Shown one piece after another: positions 15,047 through 39,799 of a stretch of DNA of 39,875 nucleotides. Where the stretch lies: assembly GCA_023247575.1 (NCBI GenBank), contig JAHFGE010000004.1, positions 1-39,875 on the forward strand, given 5' to 3'. Numbering within the stretch: the first letter of the stretch is position 1; the number at the start of each line of letters is the position of its first letter. The notes beneath the pieces are model-generated. The model made no database searches. It was not told the DNA's origin and saw nothing but the letters and a program-made list of their open reading frames with translations. The DNA comes from Candidatus Omnitrophota bacterium (GTDB taxonomy: Bacteria > Omnitrophota > Gorgyraeia > Zapsychrales > Fredricksoniimonadaceae). Position numbers and translations under genes: made by a program.

Positions 15047-15061
15047 TCCCGAAGTAAAAAA

Positions 15062-15145
15062 TGCTGGGAGAGGGAATCGAACCCTCACCAGGTTGCCCTG
15101 ACTGGTTTTTGAGACCAGCGCGTATACCAGTTCCGCCATCCCAGC
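15062..15145 (-). tRNA. tRNA-Leu (anticodon CAA), type II with long variable arm
   Basis: Manual cloverleaf. Acceptor GCTGGGA/TCCCAGC, anticodon stem CTGGT/ACCAG with loop CTCAAAA, variable stem CAGG/CCTG, T-arm GAGGG-TTCGATT-CCCTC. CCA is not encoded. Confidence 0.9.
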
Positions 15146-15148
15146 AAC

Positions 15149-15226
15149 TGGTGGAGCTGAGGGGGATTGAACCCCTGACCTCTTCAATGCCATTGAAGCG
15201 CTCTCCCAAAACTGAGCTACAGCCCC
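15149..15226 (-). tRNA. tRNA-Ala (anticodon GGC), CCA encoded
   Basis: Acceptor GGGGCTG/CAGCTCC with the G3:U70 Ala identity pair, anticodon loop ATGGCAT, T-loop TTCAATC, 3' ACCA. Confidence 0.9.
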
Positions 15227-24900: not shown

Positions 24901-25323
24901 TTAATTACCTCTATTCCTAAATAAATTTTGGAACCATTTGGTTGAAGTCAAAGTTAAGCCTCCCATCACCAATATATTCATCAGCAAAAACAAATGCATC
25001 CCTTGTGTCTGCCAAAAATAGTATTTATTCACCCATAAATTAATCAAACAAACACAAGAGATAGCCACAATGATCATATGAGGAATAAAAAATCGTACGT
25101 ATGAAACTACTGCATTATGATCCTTTGGTGTTACAAAATTGGTACGCAGTAACTTGCCTTTGAAAATCGCCTTTATAAATGCGTAAACAACATAAGGACT
25201 TGATGCTATTTCAGCCAATCCACTTCTCCACCAGATACTCTGCTCGCTTGATGGATTAATCAAAAACCGCCCTCCCCACCCAATTAAAATAAAAATTTTA
25301 TTTAGGTAACTCCGAAGTACCAT
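24901..25323 (-). pseudogene. Small 4-TM protein resembling only the C-terminal part of a processive GT2 (cellulose-synthase-like) glycosyltransferase
   Basis: EQSIWWRSGLAEI resembles a degenerate Q(R/Q)xRW box and is followed by a FVTPK motif and TM helices. The catalytic D,D,D part is absent. An in-frame stop at 25396-25398 bounds it upstream. The track start is TTG at 25359 and the ATG is at 25323. Confidence 0.4.
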
Positions 25324-26095
25324 TTCCCTGCGCCTTGACGAGTTTACGGACGGTGTCAAACAAACCTTCCAAGATACGATTCGCTTCCGTTTCGTCTATT
25401 TCAAATTGTTCGATAATTTGTAGGACACTACTGCCATCATACCAGGCTTCAAATATCTTGATGTCGCGGGGCACATGGTAGCCGGCGAGGTCATTGATTA
25501 ATTGTTCGATGCCTCCTTCATAAGGCAACTCGACCTTTTCTCCTCCTTGATCCACTATTTCTTGGTTTTCAGCCACCGCCTCTTCCTCTGGAGAACCTAA
25601 TCCTTCATCCGTATCAATATCTTCTTCCTCGTCTTCTCCGGGGGGAAGATTCGGCTCATATCCTAAGCGCCGATAAGCTTCAGCCGCAGGAATAATATCC
25701 AGCCATGTAAGCTCGTCATCCTTACCCGTTGCCGGACTCTGAAGATTGATCTGGCCGGTCGACCTTAACAATCGGGTCGTTTCAGACTTAAGATGCCTCT
25801 TGAGTGCTTCATGAACAAATTCCCTCAATGTTTTACCTCTTTCTGGTGTATATTGAAGCATTTGGTCGATAACAATCTCGCAACCCGTCGCGCGCAAGTT
25901 ATCCGCCCAATGGCTGTCACTGCTGCGAGAATGCCGACTGACAAACTCTTCGATCATGGGGTAAAACGATAAGACCAAATCCGAAAAGGCTTTGGAGTCA
26001 TGCCGTATCCGCTTCCAGCAATCAAGCTGTTGGGTATCGCTCAACTCTTTGGCTGCGGCCAATTGGCGCCTCCACTGTTCATCCGCCGATGGCAT
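25298..26095 (-). other. Sigma-70-like module (regions 2 and 4) forming the giant ORF C-terminus
   Basis: ADNLRATGCEIVIDQMLQYTPERGKTLREFVHEALKRHL resembles region 2.1-2.4. IFEAWYDGSSVLQIIEQFEIDETEANRILEGLFDTVRKL resembles the region 4 HTH. An in-frame Met lies at 26095. Confidence 0.5.
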
Positions 26096-29000
26096 CTGCG
26101 GTATTTCAGGTTTAACCGTCTCTTTGGCTGGAAAATATTTTTTCATGTCTGTGGTCAACATCATCGGACGGAAAATAACTAAAAGCTCCATTTTATTCTC
26201 TGGACCAGGGATCTTTTTCATTCCATACATAAGCACAACTCTTTCTCTGCTATTTAACGTTGCCGCCCGTAAAAAAACCCAGTCACCTTCGACGTATCCT
26301 TTCGATTCAAGATAACCCGTTGGGAAATATAAAATACGACTTTCAATATTCGCATCCAAACTGATCCCCAAACGAGGGTTGCCGCCGACATCTCTTTTAG
26401 AAAAAAGTTGTACCCTAACTCTCGCCCATTTAGGAGGCATTCGTTTACCTTTTAAGGCTTGCAACACATAATGCATCCGAAGCAAAACTAACTTTGGACC
26501 TTCCTTTGAAGGCAGATAAACCCCAACCGGGGCGTGACGTAAACAAACTTCCTGATCTGGGCTAATCATGGCATAAAAAGCAAGAGCCGTAGGTAAAAGA
26601 CGAAACCGTCGACCTTTTAATAAATAATCGTAAATTTCTTTTCCCCCTCTGATCTGCGGAATATAAAAAGCTGCCCGGCCAAATCTTTTTGTCATTCCCG
26701 GCGTCGCCTCAAAGGGGAAGGGACCATCATCCAGTGTCAGTCCCGACCCTCTTCTGTGATCGCCTTTGAAGATAAATCTCTCTACTTTATGGATGAGAAG
26801 AGGATCAAGTGGAGCTCGAAAATAGGTCCTTTTTGCTTGCGCTGGTGGCAATTGCCCCTGTACTCCATAGGCATGCTCGATCGCTGGGTAAATATCGACG
26901 GCTGGAATTCTTTTCTCTAATTCGAAGGCTGACAACAATTGTGACATATTTTCCGGTTTCATATATGAAAACCGTGGATCAATTGATTTTACTCTATCCC
27001 CCATTTCTTTGAGCGTCTTCCCTTGCCGCAAACGCCTCAACTTCATGAACGGCCCCCAGGACAAACGCTCCCGCGCCTCTAAATAGTTCATTCCTATTAA
27101 AAATCGGGAAGGTTCAATATCGAGAATGGAAGCAATATGTAGGATATCTCCTGGTCTGTATTTGCCATCGCTTTGACTTGCTAAAAGATTACGCCGATAG
27201 TCATAAATATCCTGATAACCTAACAGCCTTGCCATCTCCTGGTCAGAAATACCGCGGTCATTCGCAATCGCCTTTATTCTTGCCCCAAAAGGTATCGATG
27301 CCAGCTGATCTACCAGCTGTAAATCACTAAGCGGCCGCTCATTGAATTCGGCCAACAAGGCTTTGCCTTTGCGTTGTTCCCGGATGTTTACCGCCTCTGG
27401 TAATCCACCGCTGACCATGGCGATATTCATGTCGGGGAGAAAAGTCAGACGGAAAGTTTGTTTGGCGATGAAATCCAATGACCTCTGATCGTGCGGGTTG
27501 TCTGATCCATAACCGCCAACCCGCAAAAATATCGGCACCAGTGAAGACTCTCCGGCCGAATTCCCAGGGCCGAAAATAACCTCGGCCCATGGGTGTGTCA
27601 ATTCAGTTGGAACAACAATGGCATAATCGCCAATCTCTATTTCACGAGATGGGGAAATTGGCATCGCAAGTCTCGTCACCAGGATCTGATATCCTTTCAA
27701 ATAAGCCCAGCCCAAATCTTCTGTCAACCGTTTATGCGAAATTGTTGGAAAAAAGGAATCGATCGTTTGAATTGGTTTATAATCATTATCGACCATACGG
27801 ACGGTAGGGATAAATCCACACTGGCTCTCGCTTCCTTGAGCGCTATTGACTGTAAAATAATAAGGAAAGGCAAACTGATCAAAGGCCAGCGAAACTGTTC
27901 CCTTTTTGAATCGCTCGTCAAAAAAGAAATAAAACGACGAATGGAGTTCGGGTAGGGAAAAAGTTTCCAAAGCAAATAAAATTTCTGAAAGGACCTGATG
28001 GGCATAGGGAACAACGTATCCTTTAACCCAGAATAAACCACTATTTGCAAATCCTTCGATTTTTCTTATTTTAAATACTTTTGCTTTCCCCAAGACCCTA
28101 ATACTTTGGCCCTCCTGATTTGTTTGATAGGCAACCAGTAGATCCTCAGCCCTTTCTTTCCCAAGAAACTGAACACCCTCGATACCACCGCTTTGATCAA
28201 CATGCAATGAATACAGGGCGCCGCGATAACCCGGAAAACGCACATCAAACAAGGGACGGACAGTCAGCCTTTCCATTGAAGGAAGGATTGACTCGATCCG
28301 TTTGCTCTGTATAATCTCTGCCTTACGTAGCCCTTCCATGGTTTCAAAAACGACCGCCGCAATTCGTCCGTCTTTAATCACACTGTTGAGCCTTCGGTTG
28401 ACGTAAATCGACCCACCAAAACCGGAAGCCTCAACAGGAACCCAGAATCCCAAATCCGGGACAAAGCGCCATTCGATCCGGATATCTTTTAGACCACTTT
28501 GATTCGCAGCCCTGACCTTGAGGGCGTTGATGCCCTGCGGCAGTTCCGCAGCGAAGATTCTGTTAGAGAAATCATCATTTAATAAGGGCAAATACCCATC
28601 AATGATCCGATGCCTCCGGCTCCATTGCCCTTCGGATAATTCCTTAAAGGTATCTTCACGGTTTCCTGCCCATCTATCAGCAATATATTGGGCATAGTAG
28701 GAAGACCGCAGATTAAACCTACGGACAAACGCGTCATGGAAAACCACAGGCGAAACCTTTCGTAGAACCGCGTGAATCCGTTTCTTGTCATCACTGCGGC
28801 CAACGGAGTCTAGCGTCTCTAGGATCATCTCTGTCAAATGTCCTGCCGCCTCTTGATTCTCACCAAAACCCTCCTCTTTCCCAGCAATCATCACTTCCCA
28901 TGGCCTTTGGATTTCAAAAATACATTTTACCTCTAGACCCCGAGCCTTAATCTCATCAAGGTTCTCTATCTCCTGTTGGCTTAACATATGCCCCGTACGT

Positions 29001-32000
29001 AATCCCCCGGCGCCAGGTAGATCCCGTGGATCAAAACTTACTAGATCATTGTCATCAAAAGACGAGACCGGAATTCTATCCAGAATAAATCCAGCGTTAA
29101 TCCCTGCTTTGTATATATTTCTTCCCGCTACCCAGGCCTGGGCAACGGCAATTTCTTCTCCCTCATGGTGGATATAGATAGTGTCCCCTTCTTTCCTGGG
29201 GCTCATCTGGCTAAGCTTCTCCCAGAGAAGATCAACCATCTCACCCCGTCCTGTATCGCGCAGTTTTTTGCAGAAACAATTCACGTCGGATACTTGACGT
29301 AAAAATATTCCCAACGGCATCCCAACTGGCCTCCTTGCGGGAACCTTTACAACAGTAGGTACGGTCTGCGCCTTCTGTTTTCTTTTGAGTTCTTCCCTAC
29401 GTCCTTCTTCTCGTAATTTTTCAAATTTTTGTTTTAGTGCTGCATCAATCTCAAGTTCCTTTCCAACCGACCAACATGGACTCGGCTCATTCAACCTCCT
29501 GAAATAATTAATTTCAACGTAAAGACGCCAGCCTACTCTCAAAAGAACGTACCCTCCAGCGACGATTAAGAAAAACATCCTGTAAAAATCAAACATGACA
29601 TAAATGGCAGAGGCGATTACTGGAACCAATGGAGCTCTATTGGTTACCATCTCGACTTTCGTTAGAGGGCGGCTTGTGATATTCGCATTTGTATCAGCCC
29701 TGGCTATGTCGCCAGTCAATAGTATGAACCCGCAGGTTACAAGCGCAAGCGGGACAAGGAACAAAGGCAGTATGCGCCCAGTCCGGCCGGGCTTGCAAAT
29801 CGACGGCTTCCCACAAATCGACGGCTTCCCCTCATTGACAACTTCTAACTGAGGTGCTATAGTTTGATTAACTAAAAAAGAGGATTGCCTTACGGTGCGC
29901 AAAACAAAAAACAGACTCAAAATGAATATTAAAACCCCGAATGGTAAAAGATTTAATGCCGACAAGTGGCTTACGGAACATTTCGAAGAGCTTGTCAATA
30001 AATTTCCCGGCGAATATATAATTGTGGCTAATGGAAAAATATATCGTAAAGGCCCCCCCCGCCAATTGAGAGATAGGGCCTTAAAAGAAAATCCAGGTGC
30101 TGTTATTATGGGGCACCGAGTTCCCCGTCCAAAAGATTTTCTATGCGCGCTCATCGGGCAATAAAGTTCCCTTACAAAGCCTACAGGATGTTTCCCTGTC
30201 CCATAGTTCCTGTTCAATTGCAGGGACCTAAAGGTTGGTTTACTGCTGACGCCTATGTGGATAGCGGGGCTTTTTATTCTGTTTTCTGTATTCAAGATGC
30301 TGAAATGATCGGGCTTGACTACAAGTGCGGTCGACGAAGTAGCATCTGTGTCGGGGACGGAGATTCTATCCCTGTATATTTCCATACCCTCCCTGTAACC
30401 ATAGGAAATATTTCTCTCAACGCTATAATCGGATTCTCCGAAAAACTGAAAGTAGGATTTAATCTCCTCGGCCGCAGAAGCATATTCGAACGATTTGTGG
30501 TGATCTTTGATGACGTCAGACGCCAGATCACCTTTATCCCGCGCCGATGAATTAACTTTCTCTAAAACATCAGCCCTGGCTATGTCACCGGTCAATAGTA
30601 TGAACCCGCAGGTTACAAGCGCAAGCGGGACAAGGAGTAAAGGCAGTATGCGCCCTGAGGACGATTCGACGGGCGCTGGCACAGAGGTAGACGAATTAGG
30701 TGCTGTGTCCCCGGAATTCTGTACTTTTCCCCATTCATCAAAGATAGCAGGCGACACCTCTGCCATCATCGACGGCAAAATTGTGCAGGCCAAGACAACG
30801 AGCAGCACAGGAACCGTCCCTAAATGCGCCAGCCCCGCTGCCCCGCCGTTGGCGGGGGCAAGAAGCGGGGCCAGCGCAATACCAACACCCACCGCTGCCG
30901 CTGCACCTACAAGCGCAGTATTTACTATCCTTGCTGATTTGTAAACTGTACCGTTTGCTTGACGAGAAATGTCTTGAGTTCTCTGGAGGGTTAAATGCCC
31001 CCTCAATGCTTGACCCGCTGCCGTATATGATGTATGCTTTGAAATGAAAAGAGGACTTATAATGCTAAGAGTGAACCCCTTGACCCAGAGAGAAACCAAA
31101 GCGGTTAATGTATACAAAGCACTGTTGCTTAAAGCATTTCCAGGCCGTATCCAAAACTTTTTACTTTTTGGGTCCAAAGCCCGTCGAACGGCTGGTCGCT
31201 GGTCAGATATCGATCTTCTAGTTGTTCTTACAAAAAACGGCCGCAAGGCCCGCAAAGAAATCGCCGCGCTCACCCATGAGCCGATTGCCAAATACGGCGT
31301 TGAACTTTCCCCTGTCGTAGTGACCGCGTCCGAGATGAAGGAATGGTCGCCATTTATCGCCCACATCAAAAAAGAAGCAATTCCCATATGAACAAGAAGC
31401 AAGAATACGTAAACCTGCGCCTGAGACTGGCCAAAGAGAAATTGAAAGTGGCGGAGCTTTTGGCTAAAAGCGGCAGTTACCGCGACTCCATTTCCAGAGC
31501 CTATTATGCGATCTTTTATGCCGCAAAGGCCTTTTTGCTGTTTCACGGGCAGGACCCGACTTCTCACAAAGGTGTCAGCGTTCTTTTTCATAAATTCTGT
31601 GCCACGCACAAGCACCCTGACGCAAGTTTCGCCAAAATGCTTTCTGTTCTTCAAGAAGCACGTCAAGAAGCCGATTACAAAGAAAAAGTACGCCTTACGA
31701 AACGCGACGCCAAAGAAGCCGTCGCCTCTGCGAGAATTTTCCTTAAGGAAATCTACCGTCTCATTCGGGGCCACTAAAAGCCAAAGTTTCGCAATTCCCA
31801 GCGTCCTTACTGCCGTTGAGGCCATGACCTTCATTGTGCCCCACCCAAAGAAATGGCAGCCATCCAAGCCATTGCTTGCGGCGAGAGGCGCGGCGGCGGG
31901 TTGAGTCTTATCGTCACGTAATTTCTTCAAAGACTCCTGGAAATCACACAATACGGCAGCGGTGATTTTGTGCGATCGGCTGGATTCTATTTCCAAAAAT

Positions 32001-35000
32001 TGACTCATCGTGTTCTTGGCGCATTCTTCAACAACGTTACGGTATTCTTGCTTCAACTCAAGCGGGAAAAGAACAGTGATGGTTTTAATAACTGCTGCAT
32101 TAAGCCGACAGGCTGATTCGCCGGGATTTTTTGGTCTTAACATTTCGGCCATGGCCCGGGCAAAAGTTAACTTCCACTCGTTGGGGCACTCAGTCCACAA
32201 ACATTTCAATTGATCCAGAGCTTTCTCTGGTGTAATACGTCCAAACACCTTTTCTCCCCAAATGGCATCCGCTAAGGCAATCATTTGTTCTCCCAAACTG
32301 TTGCGAATATAGTCAGGAATTTGTCCCTCGCCTAAGATGACAGGGGCAGGTCCTTCAACGGCCCTTGCTTGAGGCAATGGCTGGTGCAGGACAGTCGCAT
32401 CGGCTACGGTCAAGGCAGGCATGGGAATTGACGGTGAAGACGCTGGCTTCGATGGAACGGATTTCTGCGGGAGACCAACAACATTGCGACCCATAATGTT
32501 AGAAAGGACGTCTCTTTCCCGGTGCTCAGGGATCAGGCCCGCTTCCCATCTATTTATCTTCCAAGTATACATTCTCAGGAATTGTGTAAAACCTGTGGGA
32601 TCACGGTCCTGCCAATGGCCCAAATATTGTTCACGTTCTTCTGCCGTCTTAAATGAACGAAGCACCGGCACATCAAAGACATCTCCCTCGATTAACAGTT
32701 TTAACGTCACAGTTTCCCATGTCGCGCAAAGCCTCTCTCGAACGAGTTTCAATGTTTTAGGATATTTCCCGGCATCCTGCCACGCCTGGGAAAATGTCAT
32801 TGCTCGCGTTATAATAACTGGGTCCACACCCAGGGCCCGTGCCAGGCAGAAAAGATTGTAAGGCAATGGGGCGCCGGCCTGCCACGCAAACCGCCCTTCA
32901 TTTTTAACGATGCCCCCTTGCTCTCTTTCCATATTAAAGTAACTTGTATATCCTATGTTGGCCTTCTTCAAGAATTCTCTGATGTCTTCATCAGGGCTCA
33001 CCCAAATCCTCAAAAATGCGATACGGTAACCGGTGGGTTTATCCTTAAGATGAACCAAGACTTCTTCCGGGAGAGCCAGTGTGCATGAAATCTCCCCATA
33101 ATGAGCCAGAGGTATAATAACTTTATCTTCCCACTGCACGTATGGTGTTTGCGGATTGATCCGCCCTTTAAATTCCTTAACTTTATCTTTAACTTCCTCA
33201 TAGGCAGCCATTCGTTCTCTATTAAGCCTCCCAATACGTTCCTGCCCGGCGGCTCTTTGGACAATGATGTTGCGGATTGCCTCTTCGTCTTCGAGAGCGG
33301 TTTCACCTGCTTTCCAGGCCTCTGCTTTGTCGGCTGTAAATCCTGATCCTAACAGCGCCTGTACACCTTGCGTCGAGAAACGTATGGAACCATCAAACCA
33401 ATAGGCCAAGAGGGCAGCGAGAATGTCTTTTCCAGGAGTTACCAGCCCCATCATGTTTTCTCGCTGATCATCTTCCATAAACGGATTAAGCCGACGGACG
33501 TCTATGCCGAGCATATGGGCCGCATCGGTTTGATTTCTATTTGCAGCAACAAGCGCCAGGGAATACGCACGCCAATGCAATTCTTCCAAAGACAACGTGG
33601 CCGGGTGCTCTGCTTTCAGAAAAATGCCGAATTGTTCTCCCAGAATTTTCCTTGCCCGTCCTGGATGACGTAATTCGGAATGCTCATGCAAAATAAACGC
33701 CAATGGTGTTAATGTTTTCTGGTACAATCCGCGCTCACTGACACCCAAGCGATCCCTCAATTCCTTTCTCACTCCTGCTCCCATTTCGGTGGCATCCTGT
33801 GACATGGCTGCAATCGTCGACAGAATTCCGATAAGTTCAATAAGTTCAACGAGAGTCGCCTCTTCTTTACCTGCACTTTCTTTTCGCAACCAGCTATAAA
33901 AAGACGGCCATATAAAGCCCGCGGGACCGGATAGGAGTGTTTGAACTTGTGTTGATTCACCTGATTCCTGTAAAAGGCGTACGGCCTGGGTTTGTTTTTT
34001 CTGCGCAGCACGGGTGTCCAAGCCGATGATGTTCTCTAAATAGCATGCCACCAAAGTCAGCGGCTGCGGGCTCCGTTTTTTGAGAACAGTATATTCGCCA
34101 AGGGCATCCAGCAAAAATTTGTGTCTTCGCTCAAGGTCGGTTGAGGCAAAGCCCCTGAGGGCCATGATCAACGTTTGCCACTCGAGGGTCTTTTTGGCTT
34201 CCTCCAGCGGCACATTCTTTTGCCGTTGATCCGATAACCATTTTAAAAAACGCTCCAATAGGGTACCGGTTGTTGGGAGAGGTTTAGGGATGACTTTCAA
34301 AGGAGCTGCTGGCAATTCGACAGTTATTTTTGCATCTAAAGGCGCAACGGCCTTAGTCGTTGGACCAATTGCTGTTGATTGAACTGGCGGGGCCAACGGG
34401 GCCACCCCCACTGCCGCTGGTTTCGTTTCCGTTAAACTTTTGGCCGCTGCTTCCGCCGCCGGTTGATCTTGACTGGCAGATGGCAAGGCTGGTCCAGTAA
34501 CTGGCGTTTCAGCACCAGTCTCAACCGGACCTTTCACAGGGCTACTGGTTATCCGAACCAATGTGGCCACCAGTTTGTCATAATGCAATCTGGCGTTTGA
34601 ACGGACGGAAAGGAACCTTTCTGGTGTTGAAAATTTGTACTGAGAATCAAACGTACCCAAAAGCCGAAAGACCTCCGCCAATTTCCCACGAATAACCTCC
34701 ACGGTAGTAGTGCCTAATTGAAAATTTAGAAAATCAAGTTCTGCATCTACCAGGCTAAGCGATGCCTCAAGAAGCATTCTAGGGCCTTCCTCTAACATAT
34801 CCATGTTACTGGATGCCTCTGTCAACAAATGTCTGACCCTTTCCCTCGCGGCATCGACTATTGTTCTTTCCCTTTGAAGTTCTTCTGCGGCCTGATGAAT
34901 AATCTCTCTGGCTCTGGTAAGATACCGGTTAAACTCGTTAAGATCGAATCTCTCCGGCCTAGATCTTTGTATAGAGGACCACGATGTTGTGCAAAGAAAG

Positions 35001-38000
35001 GCAAAGCCGGCGATGGCCGCAAGGAAAAGCCACGGGGACCCGGCTGCCAATGCCAATACAGCAAGGAAAAACACTACCGGCGAGCGAAGCTTGGTGAGAT
35101 CTATCGCCGGTTTTCCTTTATAGTTCAACTGTCCGTTTCTATTCGGAAGTTTTGCGGTTCTAGCCTTCAGCAATGCGCTCCATAGGCTATGACGGATAAC
35201 TTCAATGGTCAGCCGATGTTTTGCCCTTTGGCGACCGTGCGAGAATACAAGTCGTCCGTCAAGATAAACCTCTGTTTGAGCGCCCGGAGTTTTATAATCG
35301 TTCATGATTCTTCGAAAGAAATTTCTCAACAACCCATTGTAAGAAGCTGCAGGCGGAACAGAAAAATCATAACGGACCAAATCCGGCCGGTCTTTGAGGT
35401 TGTCCAGCACATGCTCCAGACTAGTGACCACACCGCGCGGGTTAAGCCACACTGCCTGCGCCGGCAGGACGGCCGTGAATTCCTGATGACCGCTGCGAAA
35501 TACAGCACGTGCTGTACCCATGATGGTTCGCCGCAGGCAATCCACTAAATCTCCACCGACGAAAAGGCCGGCCACTGGCAACGGCTTCGAGGGCGTAAAA
35601 TGTCCCCATTCGCTCTCGTGTGGCCTTAGTCTGAAACGACGCAGTGCGTCCGGATAAAACCACTGCCCATTGATCAAAATATAGCGGCGCTCGAGTGTGG
35701 GCCAAGCGAGCACTCCTTTATACTCGTCCATGAAGAGCTCATCTGGATGCGTTAGAACAAAAAAGTTTAGGGGTGTGCCCCTTAGCTTGAAATTCGACTG
35801 GACGACGGACGCCGATACTATACCGAGGAGGAAAAAGCCGGCGATGGCGAGAACAACAAGTAATGCAGGGACTATGCCATACGAAACAATCTTGTGGACC
35901 GTTACCCAAACCCGTTTCGAGGCCGCCGAAAGCGACTTCTTAAGGGACTGTTTGAGCATATACCGTCCCGTTTTACCGGGCAGCGCCAAAAGACCACTTG
36001 AGAGAAAACCAGCTTTCGGGAAGAACCGGAAGGCAATGGTAAGAATTTTCTTCGGCAAATATGTCAATACCAAAGCTAAAGCTATCGTTGTCCAGAAAAA
36101 TTCTTCGGTAATCTGCCCAAAAGAAGAACGCAGTTTAGGATGAACCGCTACCCACATCTCTTCAAATTCAAGTGCCTCAACAACCAGATGTCTTGCGAAC
36201 TTCTCGATCTTGCGTGACGGAATGCCGGACATGACTCCAAGACCCCAGATAATGGTCCGTGTCGTCTCAACGTAATGCTGAATACTGACGACCGGTCCCT
36301 TAAAAGGCGGCGGCGCAAGAAAAATGAATCCCTTATGAATGAAACCAGCAAGCCGTATGTTTTGTTCTTCAAGATGATCAAAAAACTTCTTGTCGCCGAC
36401 AATGATGATGTCGTTAGGCTCTATCCTCTCGAGCAAATTCCTATTTATTGGTTGAATTCGAGCCACGTTTTCCTCCATGTCATTCGGAAAATAATAGCGG
36501 ACATTTTCTAGATACCCTGCGCCGATGGGGCCAATTCTTAATGCCTCCTTCACACTATGCACCTGCCACAATGACAGCGATTTACCGTCGAGTGTCCGCC
36601 AGGCAAAGCGTTCTCGCTGAGAGCGATGAAACACCGCCGCCAACCAAGCCAAGCCGACCATGGTAAGGGCGCCGATAATCCACGGCGCCGCGATATGCAC
36701 AGCGGCCATAAGCCCGCCCCAGCCCGGCCCGTCAAAAACTGATCCAATTTTTGACAAGGTCTCGCCAAGACCGAAGGTCATGGCGGACACGTCGGGAAGC
36801 ATGAGGGCGAGGGACCATAGATTAAGGTATTGCAACGACGCGGGGAAAATAGATCCGATACTGCCAGTGATATGAATTCTGGCTTGACGTGATAATCGTT
36901 CTATACTACGATGGCTTTTGTGGAGAATGCCGTCAAACCAATCAACTTTAGCTCGCACGCCAAGGAACAATTTACCTACCGTGGAACAAACGAAAGCGAA
37001 ATAACTTCTGCGATCCGCAATTCGCGGTGGGAAAAGGCGGAACTCGGGCGCATGCAATGCAAGAAAGATCTTACCTACAATAAAGATTGGAACAATAAGT
37101 ACTACGCCACAAAACAAGTAAAGCCAATATTCATTGAGGAAAAAGATAGAATTGCAGTGATTACCGTTTACGTGTATTATTTCTAATAAGGAGGAAACAT
37201 GCGCATTACTTATGACCCAACTGTTGATGCCTTGTATATAAGATTCGAGGAAACTACCGTTACTACCAAGCACCTTTCCGAGGGCATAGCCGCTGACTAC
37301 GCCCCAGACGGCAGCCTTGCCGGCATCGAAATTCTGGACGCGGTAAGACGCTTTGGGGGAGACAAGACAACTCTCAAGAAGGTTACTCTTGAAGAAATAG
37401 GTTTGGCTGCTTAGGAAGACACCGACCAGTACAATCAAGGAAAGAATGTTTGTCAATATCCCTGGCGGGCCATGAAACAACGGGCCGAACCAGCCCGCCA
37501 CGTCGGGAAGCATGAGGGCGAGGGAAATGAAATTAAGACATGCTGTCCACCGAGCCATTGGACTGCTCTGAGCCGGCTCTTGAAGTCCGAACTCTTTAAG
37601 GAGATTCTCTTTATCAAAGGGCTGTTGACCCATACGCGCAAAATACTCGGCATTGTCGATGAAATTTTGTATGTCCTTGAATGGAAATGCCCTAAGTATT
37701 GAAAATCCCTGCGGTGTCAATAAGAGGACCTTAAAAAAGAATTGATACGTTCCCTCAACAGCTGCTTTAACTCCTTCGGCATTGAGACCAAGAATAATAT
37801 ATTTCAATAAATCTGCGGATAAATGAACATAAAAAGCATAGTAATCGGCATATTGAAGAGTCAGGGCTGATTCATGGACATGGCCGCGGCGCTGTTGACT
37901 AATATCTGGAGAATCCAAAGCCTTTTGATAGGCCCCTTCGATAGCTTCGCTTCCTCCCGGAACATAATCGGTCCTTCGGATTATGGCAAATATTTCGGCA

Positions 38001-39799
38001 AAAACCTCTTTTTGGTTCTCGTCACCAATCACGCCACGGATGGCTATTTGAAACTGCTCCTTGATCCCTCCAGCCAGCCTCTTTAAAACAAAATTAAAAT
38101 CTTCATGCGCCCCCTGTCCTTCCATGGGAAGATCAAGAATATAATGCAATTGCAAAATCGTCTGGGTGGCGTCGGCAGGTTTGCCTTTCCCTGGAGGCAG
38201 CTGACGCAAATGAAAATCATGCAGTAAAGCTGCTAAAAAGGCCGTGATCAAATCCCTTTTGGTTTTAATCAATCCGCGCCCGCGGGCTGTCTTTAAATTG
38301 CTCAAGGTCACAACGACATTATGCAGATGGCTATGAAAGAATTGCCACTCTAAGCCCATCTGTTGATACAAAGCGGCAATGATTTCGATAAGCTTTCTTG
38401 CGCTCTCCAGTTCACTGGGATTAAGATGGACGGGTAAACCATTATCGGGACCTAAAAATTTTAGAATCTCGTTGGTAAACTGACGGATGAGCGCCCTGAA
38501 CCGCCCCGCCGGATCTTCCGCAGAAGGAAATGCTGACTCCCATGCCTCACGGTCAAGGGGGCCATAGAGGACATTTACGAGATCCCTTTGGTCGTCTCTG
38601 TTGGCTGCCGGCAGAATAGTACCTCCAATATCACTACCTGCAAGCAGCACCAATCCGCTGATGATTGTCGCTACTAAAAACCCCAGCGCCCCGTGGCCGC
38701 TTAAAACATGCCCCAGCAACCCAACGCCAAAAACCACGAAGATCATCAAGCCAATCATCGGCCACATCCGTCGATTGACAAGGCTTAAGAAAAATGTTAT
38801 ATTTAAACCAAAAGGAATTTCTCTATGACTAAACTTTTGCAGGCTACTTACGAACACGGGCGACTGAAACCATCGTTGCCTCTCAATCTCCCTGAGCACC
38901 AGCGGGTCATTCTGGCGGTTGTGGTCACTGAAGACGACATCCCCGGCCTTCTGACTGCTAAACTGGCTGAAACGGGCAAAAGCTTCGACTTCCTCAACGA
39001 CCCTCGCGAAGACATTTACAATCTTTCTGACGGCAATGAACTCTAGCAAAAAATCTATTGAACGTGGCGATGTTGTGCTTATTCCTTTCCCTTTTACTGA
39101 CCTATCCAGTACCAAAGTACGCCCGGCCGTCATTATTTCCGCCAACCCACAGCAAAATGACCTTGTAGTCGCTTTTATCTCTTCTGTTTTAACCGATAAA
39201 CCCTCCAATAGCGATGTCGTCCTGGCCAGCAATGCTCCCAATTTTTCTGCGACCGGTCTTAAAAAAGATTCTGTTTTTAAAATGAACAAACTCGTCACGA
39301 TATCTTCAGCGCTAATTTTAAAACGGTTAGGCCACGTAGCCACCGCCTTCCAAAACCAATTAGACAATGCTCTTAAAAAAGCATTAAATTTATCATAAAA
39401 TACCTCTGCCATTGTTGCGGTCAAAGGAGCTGTAGGCGCCATGGCCGGGACAGGCGCCATACCGCTACGAACTGCGAACTGTGTACTATAAAGGCGGGCA
39501 CTATGTGGTGAGCTTGTCGAACCATTAAAGGTCCTGTGCATGGCAATGGCATCTTGCAGGGTGCCAGCATTCACCATATTCCATGCCGCTTCACGGATGG
39601 CCTGGCGCTTGTGCTTGGCCCCATACAAATGAAGCCACACAAAGATATGGATGGCCCAACGGCCTATAATCCCATAGGCCCAGCGTAAGATGGGGGTTTC
39701 AATCCCCGGGGCCCATTCCAATAAAATCCTGTCCGCCAAAGGCCGGGTGGAGGCAAACCGACCCAACAACCAGTACGCCATCCTGAAGGGCGGCAACAT
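25298..39799 (-). CDS. Giant 4,833-aa multi-TM, multi-module protein of unknown function
   Basis: 14,502 nt without a stop, in a genome where neighbouring genes use TAA, TAG and TGA. It has several hydrophobic TM clusters and HD-like, XRE-HTH-like and sigma-70-like segments. The first ATG is at 39799. The frame is also open for the last 25 codons to the window edge, which is not statistically informative. Confidence 0.7.
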   Translation of the reverse strand: MLPPFRMAYWLLGRFASTRPLADRILLEWAPGIETPILRWAYGIIGRWAIHIFVWLHLYGAKHKRQAIREAAWNMVNAGTLQDAIAMHRTFNGSTSSPHSARLYSTQFAVRSGMAPVPAMAPTAPLTATMAEVFYDKFNAFLRALSNWFWKAVATWPNRFKISAEDIVTSLFILKTESFLRPVAEKLGALLARTTSLLEGLSVKTEEIKATTRSFCCGLAEIMTAGRTLVLDRSVKGKGISTTSPRSIDFLLEFIAVRKIVNVFARVVEEVEAFARFSQFSSQKAGDVVFSDHNRQNDPLVLREIERQRWFQSPVFVSSLQKFSHREIPFGLNITFFLSLVNRRMWPMIGLMIFVVFGVGLLGHVLSGHGALGFLVATIISGLVLLAGSDIGGTILPAANRDDQRDLVNVLYGPLDREAWESAFPSAEDPAGRFRALIRQFTNEILKFLGPDNGLPVHLNPSELESARKLIEIIAALYQQMGLEWQFFHSHLHNVVVTLSNLKTARGRGLIKTKRDLITAFLAALLHDFHLRQLPPGKGKPADATQTILQLHYILDLPMEGQGAHEDFNFVLKRLAGGIKEQFQIAIRGVIGDENQKEVFAEIFAIIRRTDYVPGGSEAIEGAYQKALDSPDISQQRRGHVHESALTLQYADYYAFYVHLSADLLKYIILGLNAEGVKAAVEGTYQFFFKVLLLTPQGFSILRAFPFKDIQNFIDNAEYFARMGQQPFDKENLLKEFGLQEPAQSSPMARWTACLNFISLALMLPDVAGWFGPLFHGPPGILTNILSLIVLVGVFLSSQTYFFKSNLLESCLVSPKASYRVQNFDAGKAAVWGVVSGYALGKVLGSNGSFLESYIQGINSWVISNAHVSSLLEIIHVNGNHCNSIFFLNEYWLYLFCGVVLIVPIFIVGKIFLALHAPEFRLFPPRIADRRSYFAFVCSTVGKLFLGVRAKVDWFDGILHKSHRSIERLSRQARIHITGSIGSIFPASLQYLNLWSLALMLPDVSAMTFGLGETLSKIGSVFDGPGWGGLMAAVHIAAPWIIGALTMVGLAWLAAVFHRSQRERFAWRTLDGKSLSLWQVHSVKEALRIGPIGAGYLENVRYYFPNDMEENVARIQPINRNLLERIEPNDIIIVGDKKFFDHLEEQNIRLAGFIHKGFIFLAPPPFKGPVVSIQHYVETTRTIIWGLGVMSGIPSRKIEKFARHLVVEALEFEEMWVAVHPKLRSSFGQITEEFFWTTIALALVLTYLPKKILTIAFRFFPKAGFLSSGLLALPGKTGRYMLKQSLKKSLSAASKRVWVTVHKIVSYGIVPALLVVLAIAGFFLLGIVSASVVQSNFKLRGTPLNFFVLTHPDELFMDEYKGVLAWPTLERRYILINGQWFYPDALRRFRLRPHESEWGHFTPSKPLPVAGLFVGGDLVDCLRRTIMGTARAVFRSGHQEFTAVLPAQAVWLNPRGVVTSLEHVLDNLKDRPDLVRYDFSVPPAASYNGLLRNFFRRIMNDYKTPGAQTEVYLDGRLVFSHGRQRAKHRLTIEVIRHSLWSALLKARTAKLPNRNGQLNYKGKPAIDLTKLRSPVVFFLAVLALAAGSPWLFLAAIAGFAFLCTTSWSSIQRSRPERFDLNEFNRYLTRAREIIHQAAEELQRERTIVDAARERVRHLLTEASSNMDMLEEGPRMLLEASLSLVDAELDFLNFQLGTTTVEVIRGKLAEVFRLLGTFDSQYKFSTPERFLSVRSNARLHYDKLVATLVRITSSPVKGPVETGAETPVTGPALPSASQDQPAAEAAAKSLTETKPAAVGVAPLAPPVQSTAIGPTTKAVAPLDAKITVELPAAPLKVIPKPLPTTGTLLERFLKWLSDQRQKNVPLEEAKKTLEWQTLIMALRGFASTDLERRHKFLLDALGEYTVLKKRSPQPLTLVACYLENIIGLDTRAAQKKQTQAVRLLQESGESTQVQTLLSGPAGFIWPSFYSWLRKESAGKEEATLVELIELIGILSTIAAMSQDATEMGAGVRKELRDRLGVSERGLYQKTLTPLAFILHEHSELRHPGRARKILGEQFGIFLKAEHPATLSLEELHWRAYSLALVAANRNQTDAAHMLGIDVRRLNPFMEDDQRENMMGLVTPGKDILAALLAYWFDGSIRFSTQGVQALLGSGFTADKAEAWKAGETALEDEEAIRNIIVQRAAGQERIGRLNRERMAAYEEVKDKVKEFKGRINPQTPYVQWEDKVIIPLAHYGEISCTLALPEEVLVHLKDKPTGYRIAFLRIWVSPDEDIREFLKKANIGYTSYFNMEREQGGIVKNEGRFAWQAGAPLPYNLFCLARALGVDPVIITRAMTFSQAWQDAGKYPKTLKLVRERLCATWETVTLKLLIEGDVFDVPVLRSFKTAEEREQYLGHWQDRDPTGFTQFLRMYTWKINRWEAGLIPEHRERDVLSNIMGRNVVGLPQKSVPSKPASSPSIPMPALTVADATVLHQPLPQARAVEGPAPVILGEGQIPDYIRNSLGEQMIALADAIWGEKVFGRITPEKALDQLKCLWTECPNEWKLTFARAMAEMLRPKNPGESACRLNAAVIKTITVLFPLELKQEYRNVVEECAKNTMSQFLEIESSRSHKITAAVLCDFQESLKKLRDDKTQPAAAPLAASNGLDGCHFFGWGTMKVMASTAVRTLGIAKLWLLVAPNETVDFLKENSRRGDGFFGVAFRKAYFFFVIGFLTCFLKNRKHFGETCVRVLVRGTEFMKKNADTFVRSRVLPVKQQKGLCGIKDRIIGSGNGVAVTAAFSQKLRHFQFLFGQSQAQVYVFLLLVHMGIASFLMWAINGDHSFISDAVTTTGESSTPYLAIGSWVSAAISLRALRPFFVRTTRRSISDQRPAVRRALDPKSKKFWIRPGNALSNSALYTLTALVSLWVKGFTLSIISPLFISKHTSYTAAGQALRGHLTLQRTQDISRQANGTVYKSARIVNTALVGAAAAVGVGIALAPLLAPANGGAAGLAHLGTVPVLLVVLACTILPSMMAEVSPAIFDEWGKVQNSGDTAPNSSTSVPAPVESSSGRILPLLLVPLALVTCGFILLTGDIARADVLEKVNSSARDKGDLASDVIKDHHKSFEYASAAEEIKSYFQFFGESDYSVERNISYGYREGMEIYRDRISVPDTDATSSTALVVKPDHFSILNTENRIKSPAIHIGVSSKPTFRSLQLNRNYGTGKHPVGFVRELYCPMSAHRKSFGRGTRCPIITAPGFSFKALSLNWRGGPLRYIFPLATIIYSPGNLLTSSSKCSVSHLSALNLLPFGVLIFILSLFFVLRTVRQSSFLVNQTIAPQLEVVNEGKPSICGKPSICKPGRTGRILPLFLVPLALVTCGFILLTGDIARADTNANITSRPLTKVEMVTNRAPLVPVIASAIYVMFDFYRMFFLIVAGGYVLLRVGWRLYVEINYFRRLNEPSPCWSVGKELEIDAALKQKFEKLREEGRREELKRKQKAQTVPTVVKVPARRPVGMPLGIFLRQVSDVNCFCKKLRDTGRGEMVDLLWEKLSQMSPRKEGDTIYIHHEGEEIAVAQAWVAGRNIYKAGINAGFILDRIPVSSFDDNDLVSFDPRDLPGAGGLRTGHMLSQQEIENLDEIKARGLEVKCIFEIQRPWEVMIAGKEEGFGENQEAAGHLTEMILETLDSVGRSDDKKRIHAVLRKVSPVVFHDAFVRRFNLRSSYYAQYIADRWAGNREDTFKELSEGQWSRRHRIIDGYLPLLNDDFSNRIFAAELPQGINALKVRAANQSGLKDIRIEWRFVPDLGFWVPVEASGFGGSIYVNRRLNSVIKDGRIAAVVFETMEGLRKAEIIQSKRIESILPSMERLTVRPLFDVRFPGYRGALYSLHVDQSGGIEGVQFLGKERAEDLLVAYQTNQEGQSIRVLGKAKVFKIRKIEGFANSGLFWVKGYVVPYAHQVLSEILFALETFSLPELHSSFYFFFDERFKKGTVSLAFDQFAFPYYFTVNSAQGSESQCGFIPTVRMVDNDYKPIQTIDSFFPTISHKRLTEDLGWAYLKGYQILVTRLAMPISPSREIEIGDYAIVVPTELTHPWAEVIFGPGNSAGESSLVPIFLRVGGYGSDNPHDQRSLDFIAKQTFRLTFLPDMNIAMVSGGLPEAVNIREQRKGKALLAEFNERPLSDLQLVDQLASIPFGARIKAIANDRGISDQEMARLLGYQDIYDYRRNLLASQSDGKYRPGDILHIASILDIEPSRFLIGMNYLEARERLSWGPFMKLRRLRQGKTLKEMGDRVKSIDPRFSYMKPENMSQLLSAFELEKRIPAVDIYPAIEHAYGVQGQLPPAQAKRTYFRAPLDPLLIHKVERFIFKGDHRRGSGLTLDDGPFPFEATPGMTKRFGRAAFYIPQIRGGKEIYDYLLKGRRFRLLPTALAFYAMISPDQEVCLRHAPVGVYLPSKEGPKLVLLRMHYVLQALKGKRMPPKWARVRVQLFSKRDVGGNPRLGISLDANIESRILYFPTGYLESKGYVEGDWVFLRAATLNSRERVVLMYGMKKIPGPENKMELLVIFRPMMLTTDMKKYFPAKETVKPEIPQMPSADEQWRRQLAAAKELSDTQQLDCWKRIRHDSKAFSDLVLSFYPMIEEFVSRHSRSSDSHWADNLRATGCEIVIDQMLQYTPERGKTLREFVHEALKRHLKSETTRLLRSTGQINLQSPATGKDDELTWLDIIPAAEAYRRLGYEPNLPPGEDEEEDIDTDEGLGSPEEEAVAENQEIVDQGGEKVELPYEGGIEQLINDLAGYHVPRDIKIFEAWYDGSSVLQIIEQFEIDETEANRILEGLFDTVRKLVKAQGNGTSELPK
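26880..27290 (-). other. Two XRE-type helix-turn-helix-like segments inside the giant ORF
   Basis: RGISDQEMARLLGYQDIYDYRRNL and RLRQGKTLKEMGDRVKS...SQLLSAFELEKRIP. Confidence 0.4.
29693..29779. repeat. 87-bp direct repeat, copy 1 (flanks module A)
   Basis: 83/87 identical to 30569-30655. On the minus strand it encodes GRILPLFLVPLALVTCGFILLTGDIARAD. Confidence 0.95.
29796..29831. repeat. 18-bp tandem duplication (caaatcgacggcttccc[a/c] x2), encoding GKPSIC x2 in the giant frame
   Basis: Read directly. It abuts the module A -35 hexamer. Confidence 0.9.
29835..29863 (+). promoter_or_regulatory. Promoter TTGACA-N17-TATAGT for module A
   Basis: -35 at 29835-29840 and -10 at 29858-29863. GAGGA SD at 29880-29884, 10 nt before the GTG at 29895. 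Confidence 0.6.
29895..30164 (+). CDS. DUF5678-like small protein (module A, gene 1)
   Basis: WLTEHFEELVNKFPGEYIIVANGKIY follows the DUF5678 pattern. GTG start with SD (alternative ATG at 29922). Antisense to the giant ORF. Confidence 0.5.
   Translation: MRKTKNRLKMNIKTPNGKRFNADKWLTEHFEELVNKFPGEYIIVANGKIYRKGPPRQLRDRALKENPGAVIMGHRVPRPKDFLCALIGQ
30143..30550 (+). CDS. Retropepsin-like (clan AA) aspartyl protease (module A, gene 2)
   Basis: PIVPVQLQGPKGWFTADAYVDSGAFYSV has the DSGA catalytic motif in its usual context. Overlaps gene 1 by 22 nt. Confidence 0.6.
   Translation: MRAHRAIKFPYKAYRMFPCPIVPVQLQGPKGWFTADAYVDSGAFYSVFCIQDAEMIGLDYKCGRRSSICVGDGDSIPVYFHTLPVTIGNISLNAIIGFSEKLKVGFNLLGRRSIFERFVVIFDDVRRQITFIPRR
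30569..30655. repeat. 87-bp direct repeat, copy 2 (flanks module A)
   Basis: Offset from copy 1 is 876 bp (3 x 292). Encodes GRILPLLLVPLALVTCGFILLTGDIARAD. Confidence 0.95.
31010..31038 (+). promoter_or_regulatory. Promoter TTGACC-N17-TATGCT for module C
   Basis: -35 at 31010-31015 and -10 at 31033-31038. GAGGA SD at 31051-31055, 6 nt before the ATG at 31062. Confidence 0.5.
31062..31391 (+). CDS. MNT-type nucleotidyltransferase (antitoxin of HEPN/MNT pair)
   Basis: LLFGSKARRTAGRWSDIDLLVV is the canonical GSxxR...SDxD motif. I prefer the ATG at 31062 (SD, downstream of the promoter) over the track start at 31044. Confidence 0.88.
   Translation: MLRVNPLTQRETKAVNVYKALLLKAFPGRIQNFLLFGSKARRTAGRWSDIDLLVVLTKNGRKARKEIAALTHEPIAKYGVELSPVVVTASEMKEWSPFIAHIKKEAIPI
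31388..31777 (+). CDS. HEPN domain protein (toxin of HEPN/MNT pair)
   Basis: SRAYYAIFYAAKAFLLFHG...TSHKG and RQEADY HEPN motifs. ATGA overlap with the MNT stop. Confidence 0.88.
   Translation: MNKKQEYVNLRLRLAKEKLKVAELLAKSGSYRDSISRAYYAIFYAAKAFLLFHGQDPTSHKGVSVLFHKFCATHKHPDASFAKMLSVLQEARQEADYKEKVRLTKRDAKEAVASARIFLKEIYRLIRGH
34270..34555 (-). other. Pro/Ala/Thr-rich low-complexity linker in the giant ORF
   Basis: SSPVKGPVETGAETPVTGPALPSASQDQPAAEAAAKSLTETKPAAVGVAPLAPPVQ... Confidence 0.7.
36788..36814. repeat. 27-bp exact direct repeat, copy 1 (flanks module B)
   Basis: cacgtcgggaagcatgagggcgaggga, identical to 37499-37525. Encodes SLALMLPDV in the giant frame. Confidence 0.95.
36911..37186 (+). 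CDS. DUF4258-like protein (module B, toxin-like)
   Basis: INFSSHAKEQFTYRGTNESEITSAI ... IAVITVY follows the DUF4258 pattern. Confidence 0.55.
   Translation: MAFVENAVKPINFSSHAKEQFTYRGTNESEITSAIRNSRWEKAELGRMQCKKDLTYNKDWNNKYYATKQVKPIFIEEKDRIAVITVYVYYF
37199..37414 (+). CDS. DUF2283-like protein (module B, antitoxin-like)
   Basis: MRITYDPTVDALYIRF...DGSLAGIEILDA is the typical DUF2283 signature. Strong AAGGAGG SD at 37189-37195. Confidence 0.75.
   Translation: MRITYDPTVDALYIRFEETTVTTKHLSEGIAADYAPDGSLAGIEILDAVRRFGGDKTTLKKVTLEEIGLAA
37499..37525. repeat. 27-bp exact direct repeat, copy 2 (flanks module B)
   Basis: Offset from copy 1 is 711 bp (3 x 237). Weaker similarity continues for ~18 bp. 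Confidence 0.95.
37950..38420 (-). other. HD-phosphohydrolase-like region of the giant ORF
   Basis: HSHLHNV...(~35 aa)...AALLHDFH (HD dyad at 38216-38221) ... IIRRTDY has H..HD..D spacing. Confidence 0.35.
38775..38803 (+). promoter_or_regulatory. Promoter TTGACA-N17-TATATT for module D
   Basis: -35 at 38775-38780 and -10 at 38798-38803. AAGGA SD at 38812-38816, 8 nt before the ATG at 38825. Confidence 0.6.
38825..39046 (+). CDS. DUF104/AF2212-like antitoxin (module D)
   Basis: ATYEHGRLKPSLPLNLPEHQRVILAV matches the antitoxin fold signature. Overlaps the toxin gene by 11 nt. Confidence 0.6.
   Translation: MTKLLQATYEHGRLKPSLPLNLPEHQRVILAVVVTEDDIPGLLTAKLAETGKSFDFLNDPREDIYNLSDGNEL
39036..39398 (+). 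CDS. PemK/MazF-family toxin (module D)
   Basis: ERGDVVLIPFPFTDLSSTKVRPAVIIS is the canonical MazF N-terminal beta-strand signature. 120 aa. Confidence 0.85.
   Translation: MNSSKKSIERGDVVLIPFPFTDLSSTKVRPAVIISANPQQNDLVVAFISSVLTDKPSNSDVVLASNAPNFSATGLKKDSVFKMNKLVTISSALILKRLGHVATAFQNQLDNALKKALNLS

Follow-up and report, generated by a model that had tools for sequence, protein, structure and literature searches.

Long antisense overlaps between true protein-coding genes are rare in bacteria and are usually disputed. A 39,875-nt stretch of contig JAHFGE010000004.1, from a member of the Omnitrophota, a phylum known for giant genes, raises the question of how an enormous reading frame and a set of compact genes on the opposite strand can both stay intact in the same DNA. 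We refer to this whole stretch (coordinates 1-39,875) as the window; loci fetched for comparison carry L-numbers (e.g., L081). The minus strand of the window holds a giant open reading frame (ORF; 25298-39799, 4,833 aa counted from the first ATG, from a six-frame stop count) that contains eight intact plus-strand genes in four two-gene operons of toxin-antitoxin (TA) type, and these genes, read in reverse complement, make up ~2.5 kb of the ORF. Both frames are open across the overlap far beyond chance. We consider it probable that the operons are TA cassettes that sit antisense in a translated giant gene, selection acting only on the continuity of the giant frame.

Counting stop triplets in all six frames yields none in the giant frame from 25301 to the window edge at 39874 (14.5 kb) and ~5-30 stops/kb in the remaining five. 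As the frame is still open at that edge, translation does not necessarily begin at the ATG at 39799, and the real 5′ end may lie beyond the window. The visible ORF (14.5 kb, 4,833 aa, open-ended) compares with a giant-gene threshold of a single ORF of at least 20 kb or at least 7,000 aa, as quoted in West-Roberts et al. 2023 (bioRxiv 10.1101/2023.11.21.568195). The host is Omnitrophota-like: its ComM is 74% identical to the best match, from a Candidatus Omnitrophota metagenome-assembled genome (MAG), with four upstream genes in conserved order, and the giant and nested proteins have their nearest homologs in Omnitrophota.

Giant-frame codons on the minus strand occupy coordinates congruent to 2, 0, 1 mod 3. 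Five nested genes (starts 30143, 31388, 36911, 37199 and 38825) begin at positions congruent to 2 and are codon-aligned with the giant frame, which we call register 0; the other three (starts 29895, 31062 and 39036) begin at positions congruent to 0 and lie in register 1. The initial annotation had proposed this locking of registers, and the stop count and the coordinates bear it out. In register 0, giant-frame stops correspond to the sense codons TTA, CTA and TCA, each of which has synonymous alternatives, so the cost of an open frame is purely synonymous. The five aligned genes use none of the three among 43 Leu and 27 Ser codons (0/70). The HEPN gene alone has 14 Leu and 9 Ser codons without TTA, CTA or TCA, a count that our own confirms, and the AF2212-like gene has 13 Leu codons without TTA or CTA.

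Host usage, taken from 19 host genes in the window (7,331 codons), is far from the near-zero level that could have explained this absence: TTA supplies 28% of Leu codons, and TTA, CTA and TCA together account for 4.2% of the codons. In comM, codons 1-30 include four TTA and one TCA, as first reported. The three register-1 genes use 8 TTA, 5 CTA and 3 TCA among 34 Leu and 21 Ser codons (16/55). The mazF gene contains TTA six times, CTA twice and TCA twice, yet creates no giant-frame stop, and its product has no Tyr; the DUF5678-like gene uses TTA and CTA, and its codons preceding Tyr end in A. Since the register-1 genes use the three codons 16 times and the register-0 genes never, the avoidance is frame-specific and is not a codon bias of foreign DNA.

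We next consider chance. Synonymous codons of each nested gene were resampled at host frequencies with the amino-acid sequences held fixed. The giant frame stays open with probabilities of 0.051, 0.024, 0.100, 0.0023, 0.27, 0.042, 0.005 and 0.009 for the individual genes, the value of 0.0023 belonging to the HEPN gene and 0.005 to the AF2212-like gene, and the product over the genes, with the intergenic parts outside it, is ~1.5e-13. Simulation thus upholds the early expectation that chance openness is very unlikely, and an open frame is not common under host codon usage.

The same arrangement recurs in at least 26 other independent Omnitrophota loci. We surveyed 73 loci from representative genomes that encode homologs of the nested retropepsin-like gene, measured the stop-free antisense stretch spanning the gene at each, and classed as Omnitrophota-type those labelled Omnitrophota or 'uncultured Planctomycetales'. 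Of 28 Omnitrophota-type loci, 22 have the homolog inside an antisense frame open for 4.6-20.4 kb, which in most of them runs the full length of the fetched DNA. None of the 45 loci from other phyla does; there the open antisense stretch is absent or at most 1.7 kb. All nested retropepsin-like homologs are codon-aligned with their giant frame. At 18 loci, TTA, CTA and TCA account for 0 of 331 Leu and Ser codons in the aligned gene, 62 of 150 (41%) in its out-of-register partner in the same operon, and 2372 of 8793 (27%) in the surrounding giant frames. Homologs outside long antisense frames (43 loci, mostly other phyla) use them in 101 of 785 Leu and Ser codons (13%); the comparison with homologs outside giant genes that had been suggested at the outset therefore sets 0/331 against 101/785.

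Other TA families behave in the same way. A MazF homolog lies inside an antisense frame open for 9.5-20.3 kb in 4 of 5 Omnitrophota-type loci, compared with 0 of 25 from other phyla, and the nested homologs in these four loci share the one-base-shifted register of the window. L100 and L117 also nest the DUF4258/DUF2283 pair, both of its genes being codon-aligned there as they are in the window. Against Pfam, 140 plus-strand ORFs nested within 22 giant loci match 13 families, all TA-type except for one marginal SKA2 match (6.2e-5); they include aspartyl protease families, DUF433, DUF5615, DUF5678, PIN, HicA, CopG antitoxin and DUF5647.

These comparisons bear on an artefact of codon bias as an alternative: genes devoid of TTA, CTA and TCA by accident, as happens in GC-rich genomes, could produce the long antisense frame as a mere 'shadow ORF'. 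Among antisense frames the codon-aligned one generally contains the fewest stops, and 13 of 43 non-nested homologs (5 of them Omnitrophota-type) also lack the three codons, mostly in GC-rich or Omnitrophota genomes. The host, however, has a GC content of 41-51% with TTA as its commonest Leu codon, the joint probability is the minute product given above, and out-of-register genes of the same operons use the three codons freely. The frame is open, too, across those out-of-register genes, across promoters and across 10 kb of non-TA sequence where all three plus-strand frames are stop-rich, and other phyla do not exceed 1.7 kb of open antisense frame. The data exclude chance and codon bias, and the probability that we would still assign to them is virtually nil.

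The distribution of registers follows what each would cost. In register 1 the forbidden triplets straddle the codon junctions T/TA, C/TA and T/CA, which are mostly avoidable by synonymous choice, but dipeptides such as Asp-Tyr cannot be encoded. In register 2, Phe cannot be followed by Ile, Met, Thr, Asn or Lys. The window has five genes in register 0, three in register 1 and none in register 2, an order that matches the cost ranking. If placed in register 1, the five aligned proteins would face 2, 3, 2, 1 and 0 unavoidable [FYHNDC]-Tyr conflicts. The three register-1 proteins have no unavoidable conflict where they are and would have 1, 1 and 3 Phe-[IMTNK] conflicts in register 2. In the register-1 genes, codons before Tyr all end in A, the rare ATA included, and none before CAN ends in T. 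The claim that the genes at 29895, 31062 and 39036 avoid all three junctions holds, as the giant frame has no stops.

Several of the surveyed loci merit description in their own right. In L081 (1-12974; GCA_018814545.1, JAHIZL010000153.1), GenBank stops the giant gene at 9595 (5,025 aa), while the minus frame is open over the whole 12,974 bp; a plus-strand TA array of 5-6 adjacent genes, including retropepsin-like, DUF5647, HicA and PIN, occupies 9708-12581 and is called by GenBank. The continuation of the frame past its annotated end implies that published giant-protein lengths may be too short wherever TA arrays occur. Contig JBDRIY010000058.1 (117,748 bp) carries two stop-free antisense stretches ~65 kb apart, L159 (18687-39028) nesting MazF and L104 (103778-117748) nesting a retropepsin-like gene, so that different TA families occupy one contig; the two stretches may be one ORF of ~100 kb with several nested cassettes. 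The MAG JAHJHM01 ('Modern_marine_planktonic.mb.3') has three copies of the retropepsin-like module (L086, L103 and L106), 47-56% identical and on three contigs, each in a long antisense frame. Their divergence points to a long residence of the family in the giant genes of that lineage. In L082 (9458-11729), a non-giant context, a DUF5678-like/retropepsin-like pair adjoins a DUF4258/DUF2283 pair, both of them module types found in the window. None of TTA, CTA and TCA occurs in its retropepsin-like gene, around which the antisense frame is open over 1.7 kb, and the region may be what is left of a former giant ORF.

Is the long frame itself a gene? Sequence comparison suggests that the minus-strand ORF at 25298-39799 is a real, translated giant gene. 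Its native C-terminal 1200 aa (25301-28900, minus strand) belong to an Omnitrophota-conserved family without a Pfam domain and have a positive codon score. A full HMMER search with this segment finds 18 homologs, the best of them a partial Omnitrophota protein (42% identity over ~940 aa, E = 2e-235), and Omnitrophota proteins of 5,153 and 4,655 aa are included. Stop-blind codon scores per 100 codons are +7.4, +2.9 and +12.6 in native giant segments and +8.5 in a host gene. A Kyte-Doolittle scan marks 18 hydrophobic segments, which together with the homology to other giants is the pattern of a membrane-anchored mosaic. HD-like, XRE-like and sigma-like stretches in the giant translation are an impression that Pfam, finding nothing significant, does not support.

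The long frame could instead be a defunct gene, or several separate genes in a row, and not one translated unit. In a metagenome contig (L158), a standalone gene of 1101 aa (1512-4817) is homologous to the C-terminal 1100 aa, and the same-strand gene before it ends in a stop; a 2026 preprint (Nielsen & Lui 2026, bioRxiv 10.64898/2026.06.07.730766) portrays the giants of Omnitrophota as mosaics built from many ordinary enzyme domains. Against ~5-30 expected stops/kb, however, there are 0 in 14.5 kb here and 0 in up to 20.4 kb elsewhere. We regard a dead or divided giant gene as excluded by the data, with hardly any probability left to it. The standalone homolog is consistent with the published view of the giants as mosaics, and the window ORF may derive in part from a fusion of neighboring genes.

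Other searches of the giant region were negative. Exact look-up finds no identical database record for the giant protein, MazF or HEPN, scans of genome and metagenome contigs find no close relative of the giant gene (neither an "empty site" nor a close ortholog), and Rfam and tRNA scans of the giant region give no match. The sole Rfam/ARAGORN matches in the window are tRNA-Leu(CAA) and tRNA-Ala(GGC) on the minus strand at 15061-15226. At the 3′ end of the giant ORF, a 152-aa TTG-start ORF (24901-25359) overlaps it by 62 nt; at the corresponding place L001 has a 151-aa TTG-start ORF, upstream of which the ORF list for that 11.8-kb contig shows no giant ORF of 150 aa or more. Between 34300 and 36100 the giant-frame codon score is low or negative, with no convincing plus-strand gene and no Pfam match. 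This region holds a linker rich in Pro and Ala as well as a weak direct repeat whose copies (34976-35017 and 35807-35848) are 71% identical and lie in frame at a spacing of 831, and may be a decayed cassette or a foreign segment.

The nested genes, all on the plus strand, fall into recognizable TA families. Module 1 encodes a DUF5678-like small protein (29895-30164; register 1, weak Pfam match), a putative antitoxin partner, followed by a retropepsin-like aspartyl protease with a DSGA motif (30143-30550; register 0, weak Pfam match). The former has 55 tblastn matches in related loci and DUF5678 Pfam matches in four nested homologs. The latter has 90 database homologs (up to 77% identity), in which the D-S/T-G-A type core is invariant. 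Module 2 consists of an MNT-type nucleotidyltransferase (31062-31391; register 1, NTP_transf_2 3.3e-7) with a GSx10DxD motif (GSKARRTAGRWSDID in translation) and a HEPN-domain protein (31388-31777; register 0, Pfam HEPN 8.6e-22). The two genes overlap by 4 nt (31388-31391), and an MNT protein with GSx10DxD adjoining HEPN is the type VII arrangement; NCBIfam adds for MNT just a weak MntA_antitoxin match. At the expected C-terminal position the HEPN translation has RQEADY (Rx4Y, not Rx4-6H), and no canonical Rx4-6H is visible by eye. The likely MNT start is 31062 and not the ORF-list start at 31044, because a Shine-Dalgarno-like AAAAGAGGA precedes it.

Module 3 encodes a DUF4258-like toxin-type protein (36911-37186; register 0, weak Pfam match), with homologs of 55-60% identity in L082, L100 and L117, and a DUF2283 antitoxin-type protein (37199-37414; register 0, Pfam 1.2e-15), with an 81% identical homolog nested in L117. 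Module 4 encodes an AF2212-like antitoxin-type protein (38825-39046; register 0, Pfam 1.4e-5) and a PemK/MazF toxin (39036-39398; register 1, PF02452 8.3e-14; 240 homologs at E ≤ 1e-10). Their genes overlap by 11 nt, and a toxin domain preceded by a small, overlapping antitoxin gene is the MazEF/PemIK arrangement. A toxin of this type would act as an mRNA interferase neutralized by its antitoxin. Ten other plus-strand ORFs within the giant ORF have no Pfam match, and tblastn of every plus-strand open stretch (66) against the fetched loci recovers the known modules only, with no evidence for further nested genes.

From their upstream signals, the nested genes look autonomous, with predicted promoters and Shine-Dalgarno sites of their own. 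Sigma-70-like sites matching 11 of 12 positions occur three times in a 14.9-kb region, and two of the three lie directly upstream of modules 1 and 4. That of module 1 (29835-29863: TTGACA, 17 nt, TG-TATAGT) is followed by an AAGAGGA Shine-Dalgarno sequence and the GTG at 29895; that of module 4 (38775-38803: TTGACA, 17 nt, TG-TATATT) by AAAAGGAA and the ATG at 38825. Module 2 has a 9/12 promoter-like site (31010-31038: TTGACC, 17 nt, TATGCT) ahead of its Shine-Dalgarno-like sequence and the ATG at 31062, and module 3 is also preceded by a 9/12 promoter-like site. Shine-Dalgarno sequences of the AAGAGGA type lie upstream of the starts at 29895, 31062 and 38825. Just ahead of the module 1 −35 box, an 18-nt tandem duplication (29796-29830) contains CAAATCGACGGCTTCCC twice, one base apart, and translates as GKPSICGKPSIC in the giant frame; it could be a putative operator for the module's own regulator.

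That the nested ORFs are spurious or decaying, with the giant gene alone functional, would fit the three of eight that have only weak Pfam scores. The ORFs are nonetheless full length, with start-stop overlaps typical of TA operons, and HEPN, DUF2283, PemK and the nucleotidyltransferase have strong Pfam matches. The catalytic-type motifs DSGA and GSx10DxD are retained, homologs of 45-81% identity are intact in more than 20 nested loci, and canonical promoters and Shine-Dalgarno sites are present. The data exclude this explanation as well; we would put its probability as very small.

What, then, does selection see within the shared DNA? The plus-strand proteins are conserved across the overlap, and the giant-frame peptide antisense to the modules does not look conserved. 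Giant-frame codon scores per 100 codons in the four modules are −9.7, −9.3, −9.3 and −1.8, which is non-coding-like. Four-fold degenerate sites are 0.33-0.36 identical among nested homologs and 0.25-0.28 among non-nested ones, only marginally raised and near saturation. Because the module codon scores are negative and the four-fold sites nearly saturated, selection on the giant frame inside the modules appears to act on openness only. The original proposal that selection holds the giant frame open and that both strands are probably functional is supported by Pfam matches, homologs, promoters, codon scores and recurrence, with the qualification that within the modules it is openness alone that seems to be maintained.

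This pattern also accords with a variant in which the frame is kept open for the sake of the mRNA and not of the protein. A stop would uncouple the ribosome and provoke Rho-type polarity or mRNA decay with loss of everything downstream, and the peptide encoded by the cassettes would be irrelevant or proteolysed. The negative module scores and near-saturated four-fold sites speak for it, and West-Roberts et al. 2023 raise the possible cleavage of giant proteins into smaller products. The variant cannot be separated by sequence from selection for a continuous protein, as both need translation through the cassettes. A point on the other side comes from an 87-nt transmembrane-like segment repeated on both sides of module 1: its copies differ in four codons, three of them synonymously as read in the giant frame, which hints slightly at constraint on the protein at cassette borders. 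We judge the mRNA variant to be rather unlikely.

The repeats themselves bear on how the cassettes arrived. The two copies of the 87-nt direct repeat (29693-29779 and 30569-30655) are 95% identical and 876 nt apart, in frame; the left one encodes the giant-frame peptide GRILPLFLVPLALVTCGFILLTGDIARAD. Around module 3, a 39-nt direct repeat (36788-36826, giant-frame peptide LNLWSLALMLPDV, and 37499-37537) is 87% identical between copies, which are 711 nt apart, also in frame. Direct repeats of 31-210 nt bracket modules in L097, L099, L100, L102, L104 and L120 too, as target duplications would, and the spacing is a multiple of 3 in 7 of 9 repeat pairs from nested loci. The idea of a common att-like site was rejected, since the repeat sequence varies by locus; this locus specificity points to duplicated target sequence and not to a shared attachment site. 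Giant-frame translations of different loci are homologous almost solely at the modules, while the giant flanks are unrelated, so that the same cassette sits in unrelated giant genes. L102 (9334-11513) has nested direct-repeat pairs. The inner pair, of 61 nt (9557-9616 and 10502-10561), surrounds the retropepsin-like module; the outer, of 210 nt (9334-9542 and 11305-11513), takes in the inner pair and more sequence besides, and in both the spacing preserves the frame. This layout suggests that insertion-duplication events succeeded one another at a single site.

We infer the following sequence of events for the explanation that we favor, of TA cassettes in a translated giant gene under selection for frame continuity only. 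At least four autonomous TA-type operons would have become lodged antisense in the giant gene. Any stop in the giant frame would leave the protein truncated and its translation uncoupled, and only frame-preserving cassettes would persist, either arriving stop-free or being purged of stops later. Placing the longer gene of each pair in the codon-aligned register would be the cheapest route to openness; its overlapping partner would then be one base out of register, with only the T/TA, C/TA and T/CA junctions to avoid. The third register would forbid common dipeptides and so go unused. Ribosomes on the giant mRNA would read through each cassette, adding a spacer of ~210-260 residues of unconserved sequence, and the TA genes would be transcribed convergently from their own promoters. 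Translation through the cassettes, the expression and activity of the TA genes and the mode of cassette insertion are all inferred from these patterns.

A number of observations weigh against this explanation. The case for read-through and for TA expression is built wholly from sequence statistics and comparison. The giant protein has no significant Pfam match, either whole or as ten pieces, and a word-indexed homolog search with the whole protein gives no match. No flanking repeats were found for modules 2 and 4, two of the nine repeat pairs (in other loci) are spaced out of frame, the nested ORFs have no transposase or integrase Pfam match, and none of the modules is bracketed by inverted repeats. 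Ranked by similarity, nested and non-nested homologs are intermingled: the nearest homolog of the window gene is the non-nested one of L083 (68% identical), and the nearest of L097 comes from a Clostridia MAG (75% identical). As a control, 42 antisense ORFs from two giants unselected for TA content (L239 and L240) yield 0 Pfam matches. Since these two giants are without nested Pfam-positive genes, the arrangement is frequent but not universal.

The same control bears on a further possibility, that the cassettes serve the giant gene. They could be addiction modules that penalize deletion of a costly, recombination-prone gene, or stress-responsive antisense promoters that throttle its transcription by convergent collision. 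Several unrelated TA-type families gather in the same giant ORFs (four modules in the window and the array of adjacent genes in L081), strong outward-facing predicted promoters are embedded in the giant frame, and one MAG has three diverged copies, each in a different giant-ORF contig. Two giants, however, have no nested TA genes, and accumulation is equally expected if giants are simply the largest insertion-tolerant targets in small genomes. We see such a service as possible but doubtful. About equally tentative is the idea of an Omnitrophota class of TA cassettes specialized for antisense life in giant ORFs, which would spread from one unrelated giant gene to another in a fixed register that leaves the host frame open and would also guard a costly host gene by addiction or brake its transcription under stress.

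Cassettes in a giant frame share features with several known systems. In bacterial antisense overlapping genes ('shadow' or overprinted genes), two opposite-strand frames share DNA, and GC-rich genomes show long codon-aligned antisense ORFs. The likeness lies in the opposite-strand sharing, the preferred codon-aligned register and the avoidance of stops by excluding TTA, CTA and TCA. To our knowledge, the bacterial antisense overlaps reported so far are short, lineage-restricted novel ORFs in old genes, and their coding status is often disputed. The embedded genes of the window, by contrast, belong to old and widespread Pfam families, are fully nested and encode at most 135 aa; more than 25 loci can be compared, with the operon partner as an internal control, and selection on the enclosing frame appears to concern openness alone. 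TA cassettes are also known to stabilize chromosomal superintegrons and genomic islands, where, as here, several unrelated TA operons with their own promoters lie inside one large, variable and probably costly unit. Unlike those, the nested modules show no attC-like shared repeats and no integrase, and the cassettes sit in a coding frame that is not to be interrupted; by this analogy, a stabilizing role for the nested cassettes is a hypothesis. Rickettsia palindromic elements and inteins are inserts translated within a host protein with its reading frame kept, a preservation matched by the in-frame repeat spacings in the window. The inserts described here differ in that they carry complete opposite-strand genes, measure 0.7-0.9 kb and are not palindromic, with no conserved splicing motifs in the giant frame and target duplications of 31-210 nt.

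The window ORF resembles other Omnitrophota giant genes in its Omnitrophota-like host, its single stop-free frame of at least 14.5 kb, its many transmembrane-like segments and its near-unique mosaic sequence. It differs from them in having no Pfam domain, where 85% of catalogued long proteins carry at least one (Nielsen & Lui 2026), and in that ~2.5 kb of it, read on the other strand, consists of intact TA genes. According to West-Roberts et al. 2023, Omnitrophota giant ORFs are transcribed as one mRNA (citing Seymour et al. 2023) and a 39,678-aa protein was detected by proteomics (citing Kizina et al. 2022); these transcript and proteome data cover other Omnitrophota giants, not the ORF of the window. 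Opposite-strand genes, antisense overlap and TA modules in giant ORFs go unmentioned in West-Roberts et al. 2023 and Nielsen & Lui 2026, and our literature searches found no prior description of TA genes nested antisense in giant ORFs. The long antisense TA overlap in giant genes is thus well supported and apparently undescribed, combining the known phenomena of antisense overlap and giant genes.

The present case offers many independent loci, a control within the same operon and a quantitative register-cost rule that predicts the arrangements, and so provides a test bed for how two frames share DNA. It also means that a giant 'protein' can in part be the translated reverse complement of other genes, which affects domain catalogues, estimates of 'dark matter' and structure predictions. 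Gene callers either cut the giant ORF at cassettes or omit the TA genes; GenBank does the former in L081. Were the specialized-cassette idea true, giant proteins would routinely contain translated reverse complements of other genes. For the Omnitrophota, the arrangement raises the questions of why these frames must stay open, how much arbitrary sequence a giant protein tolerates, and whether TA modules stabilize or regulate the giant genes in which they lie.

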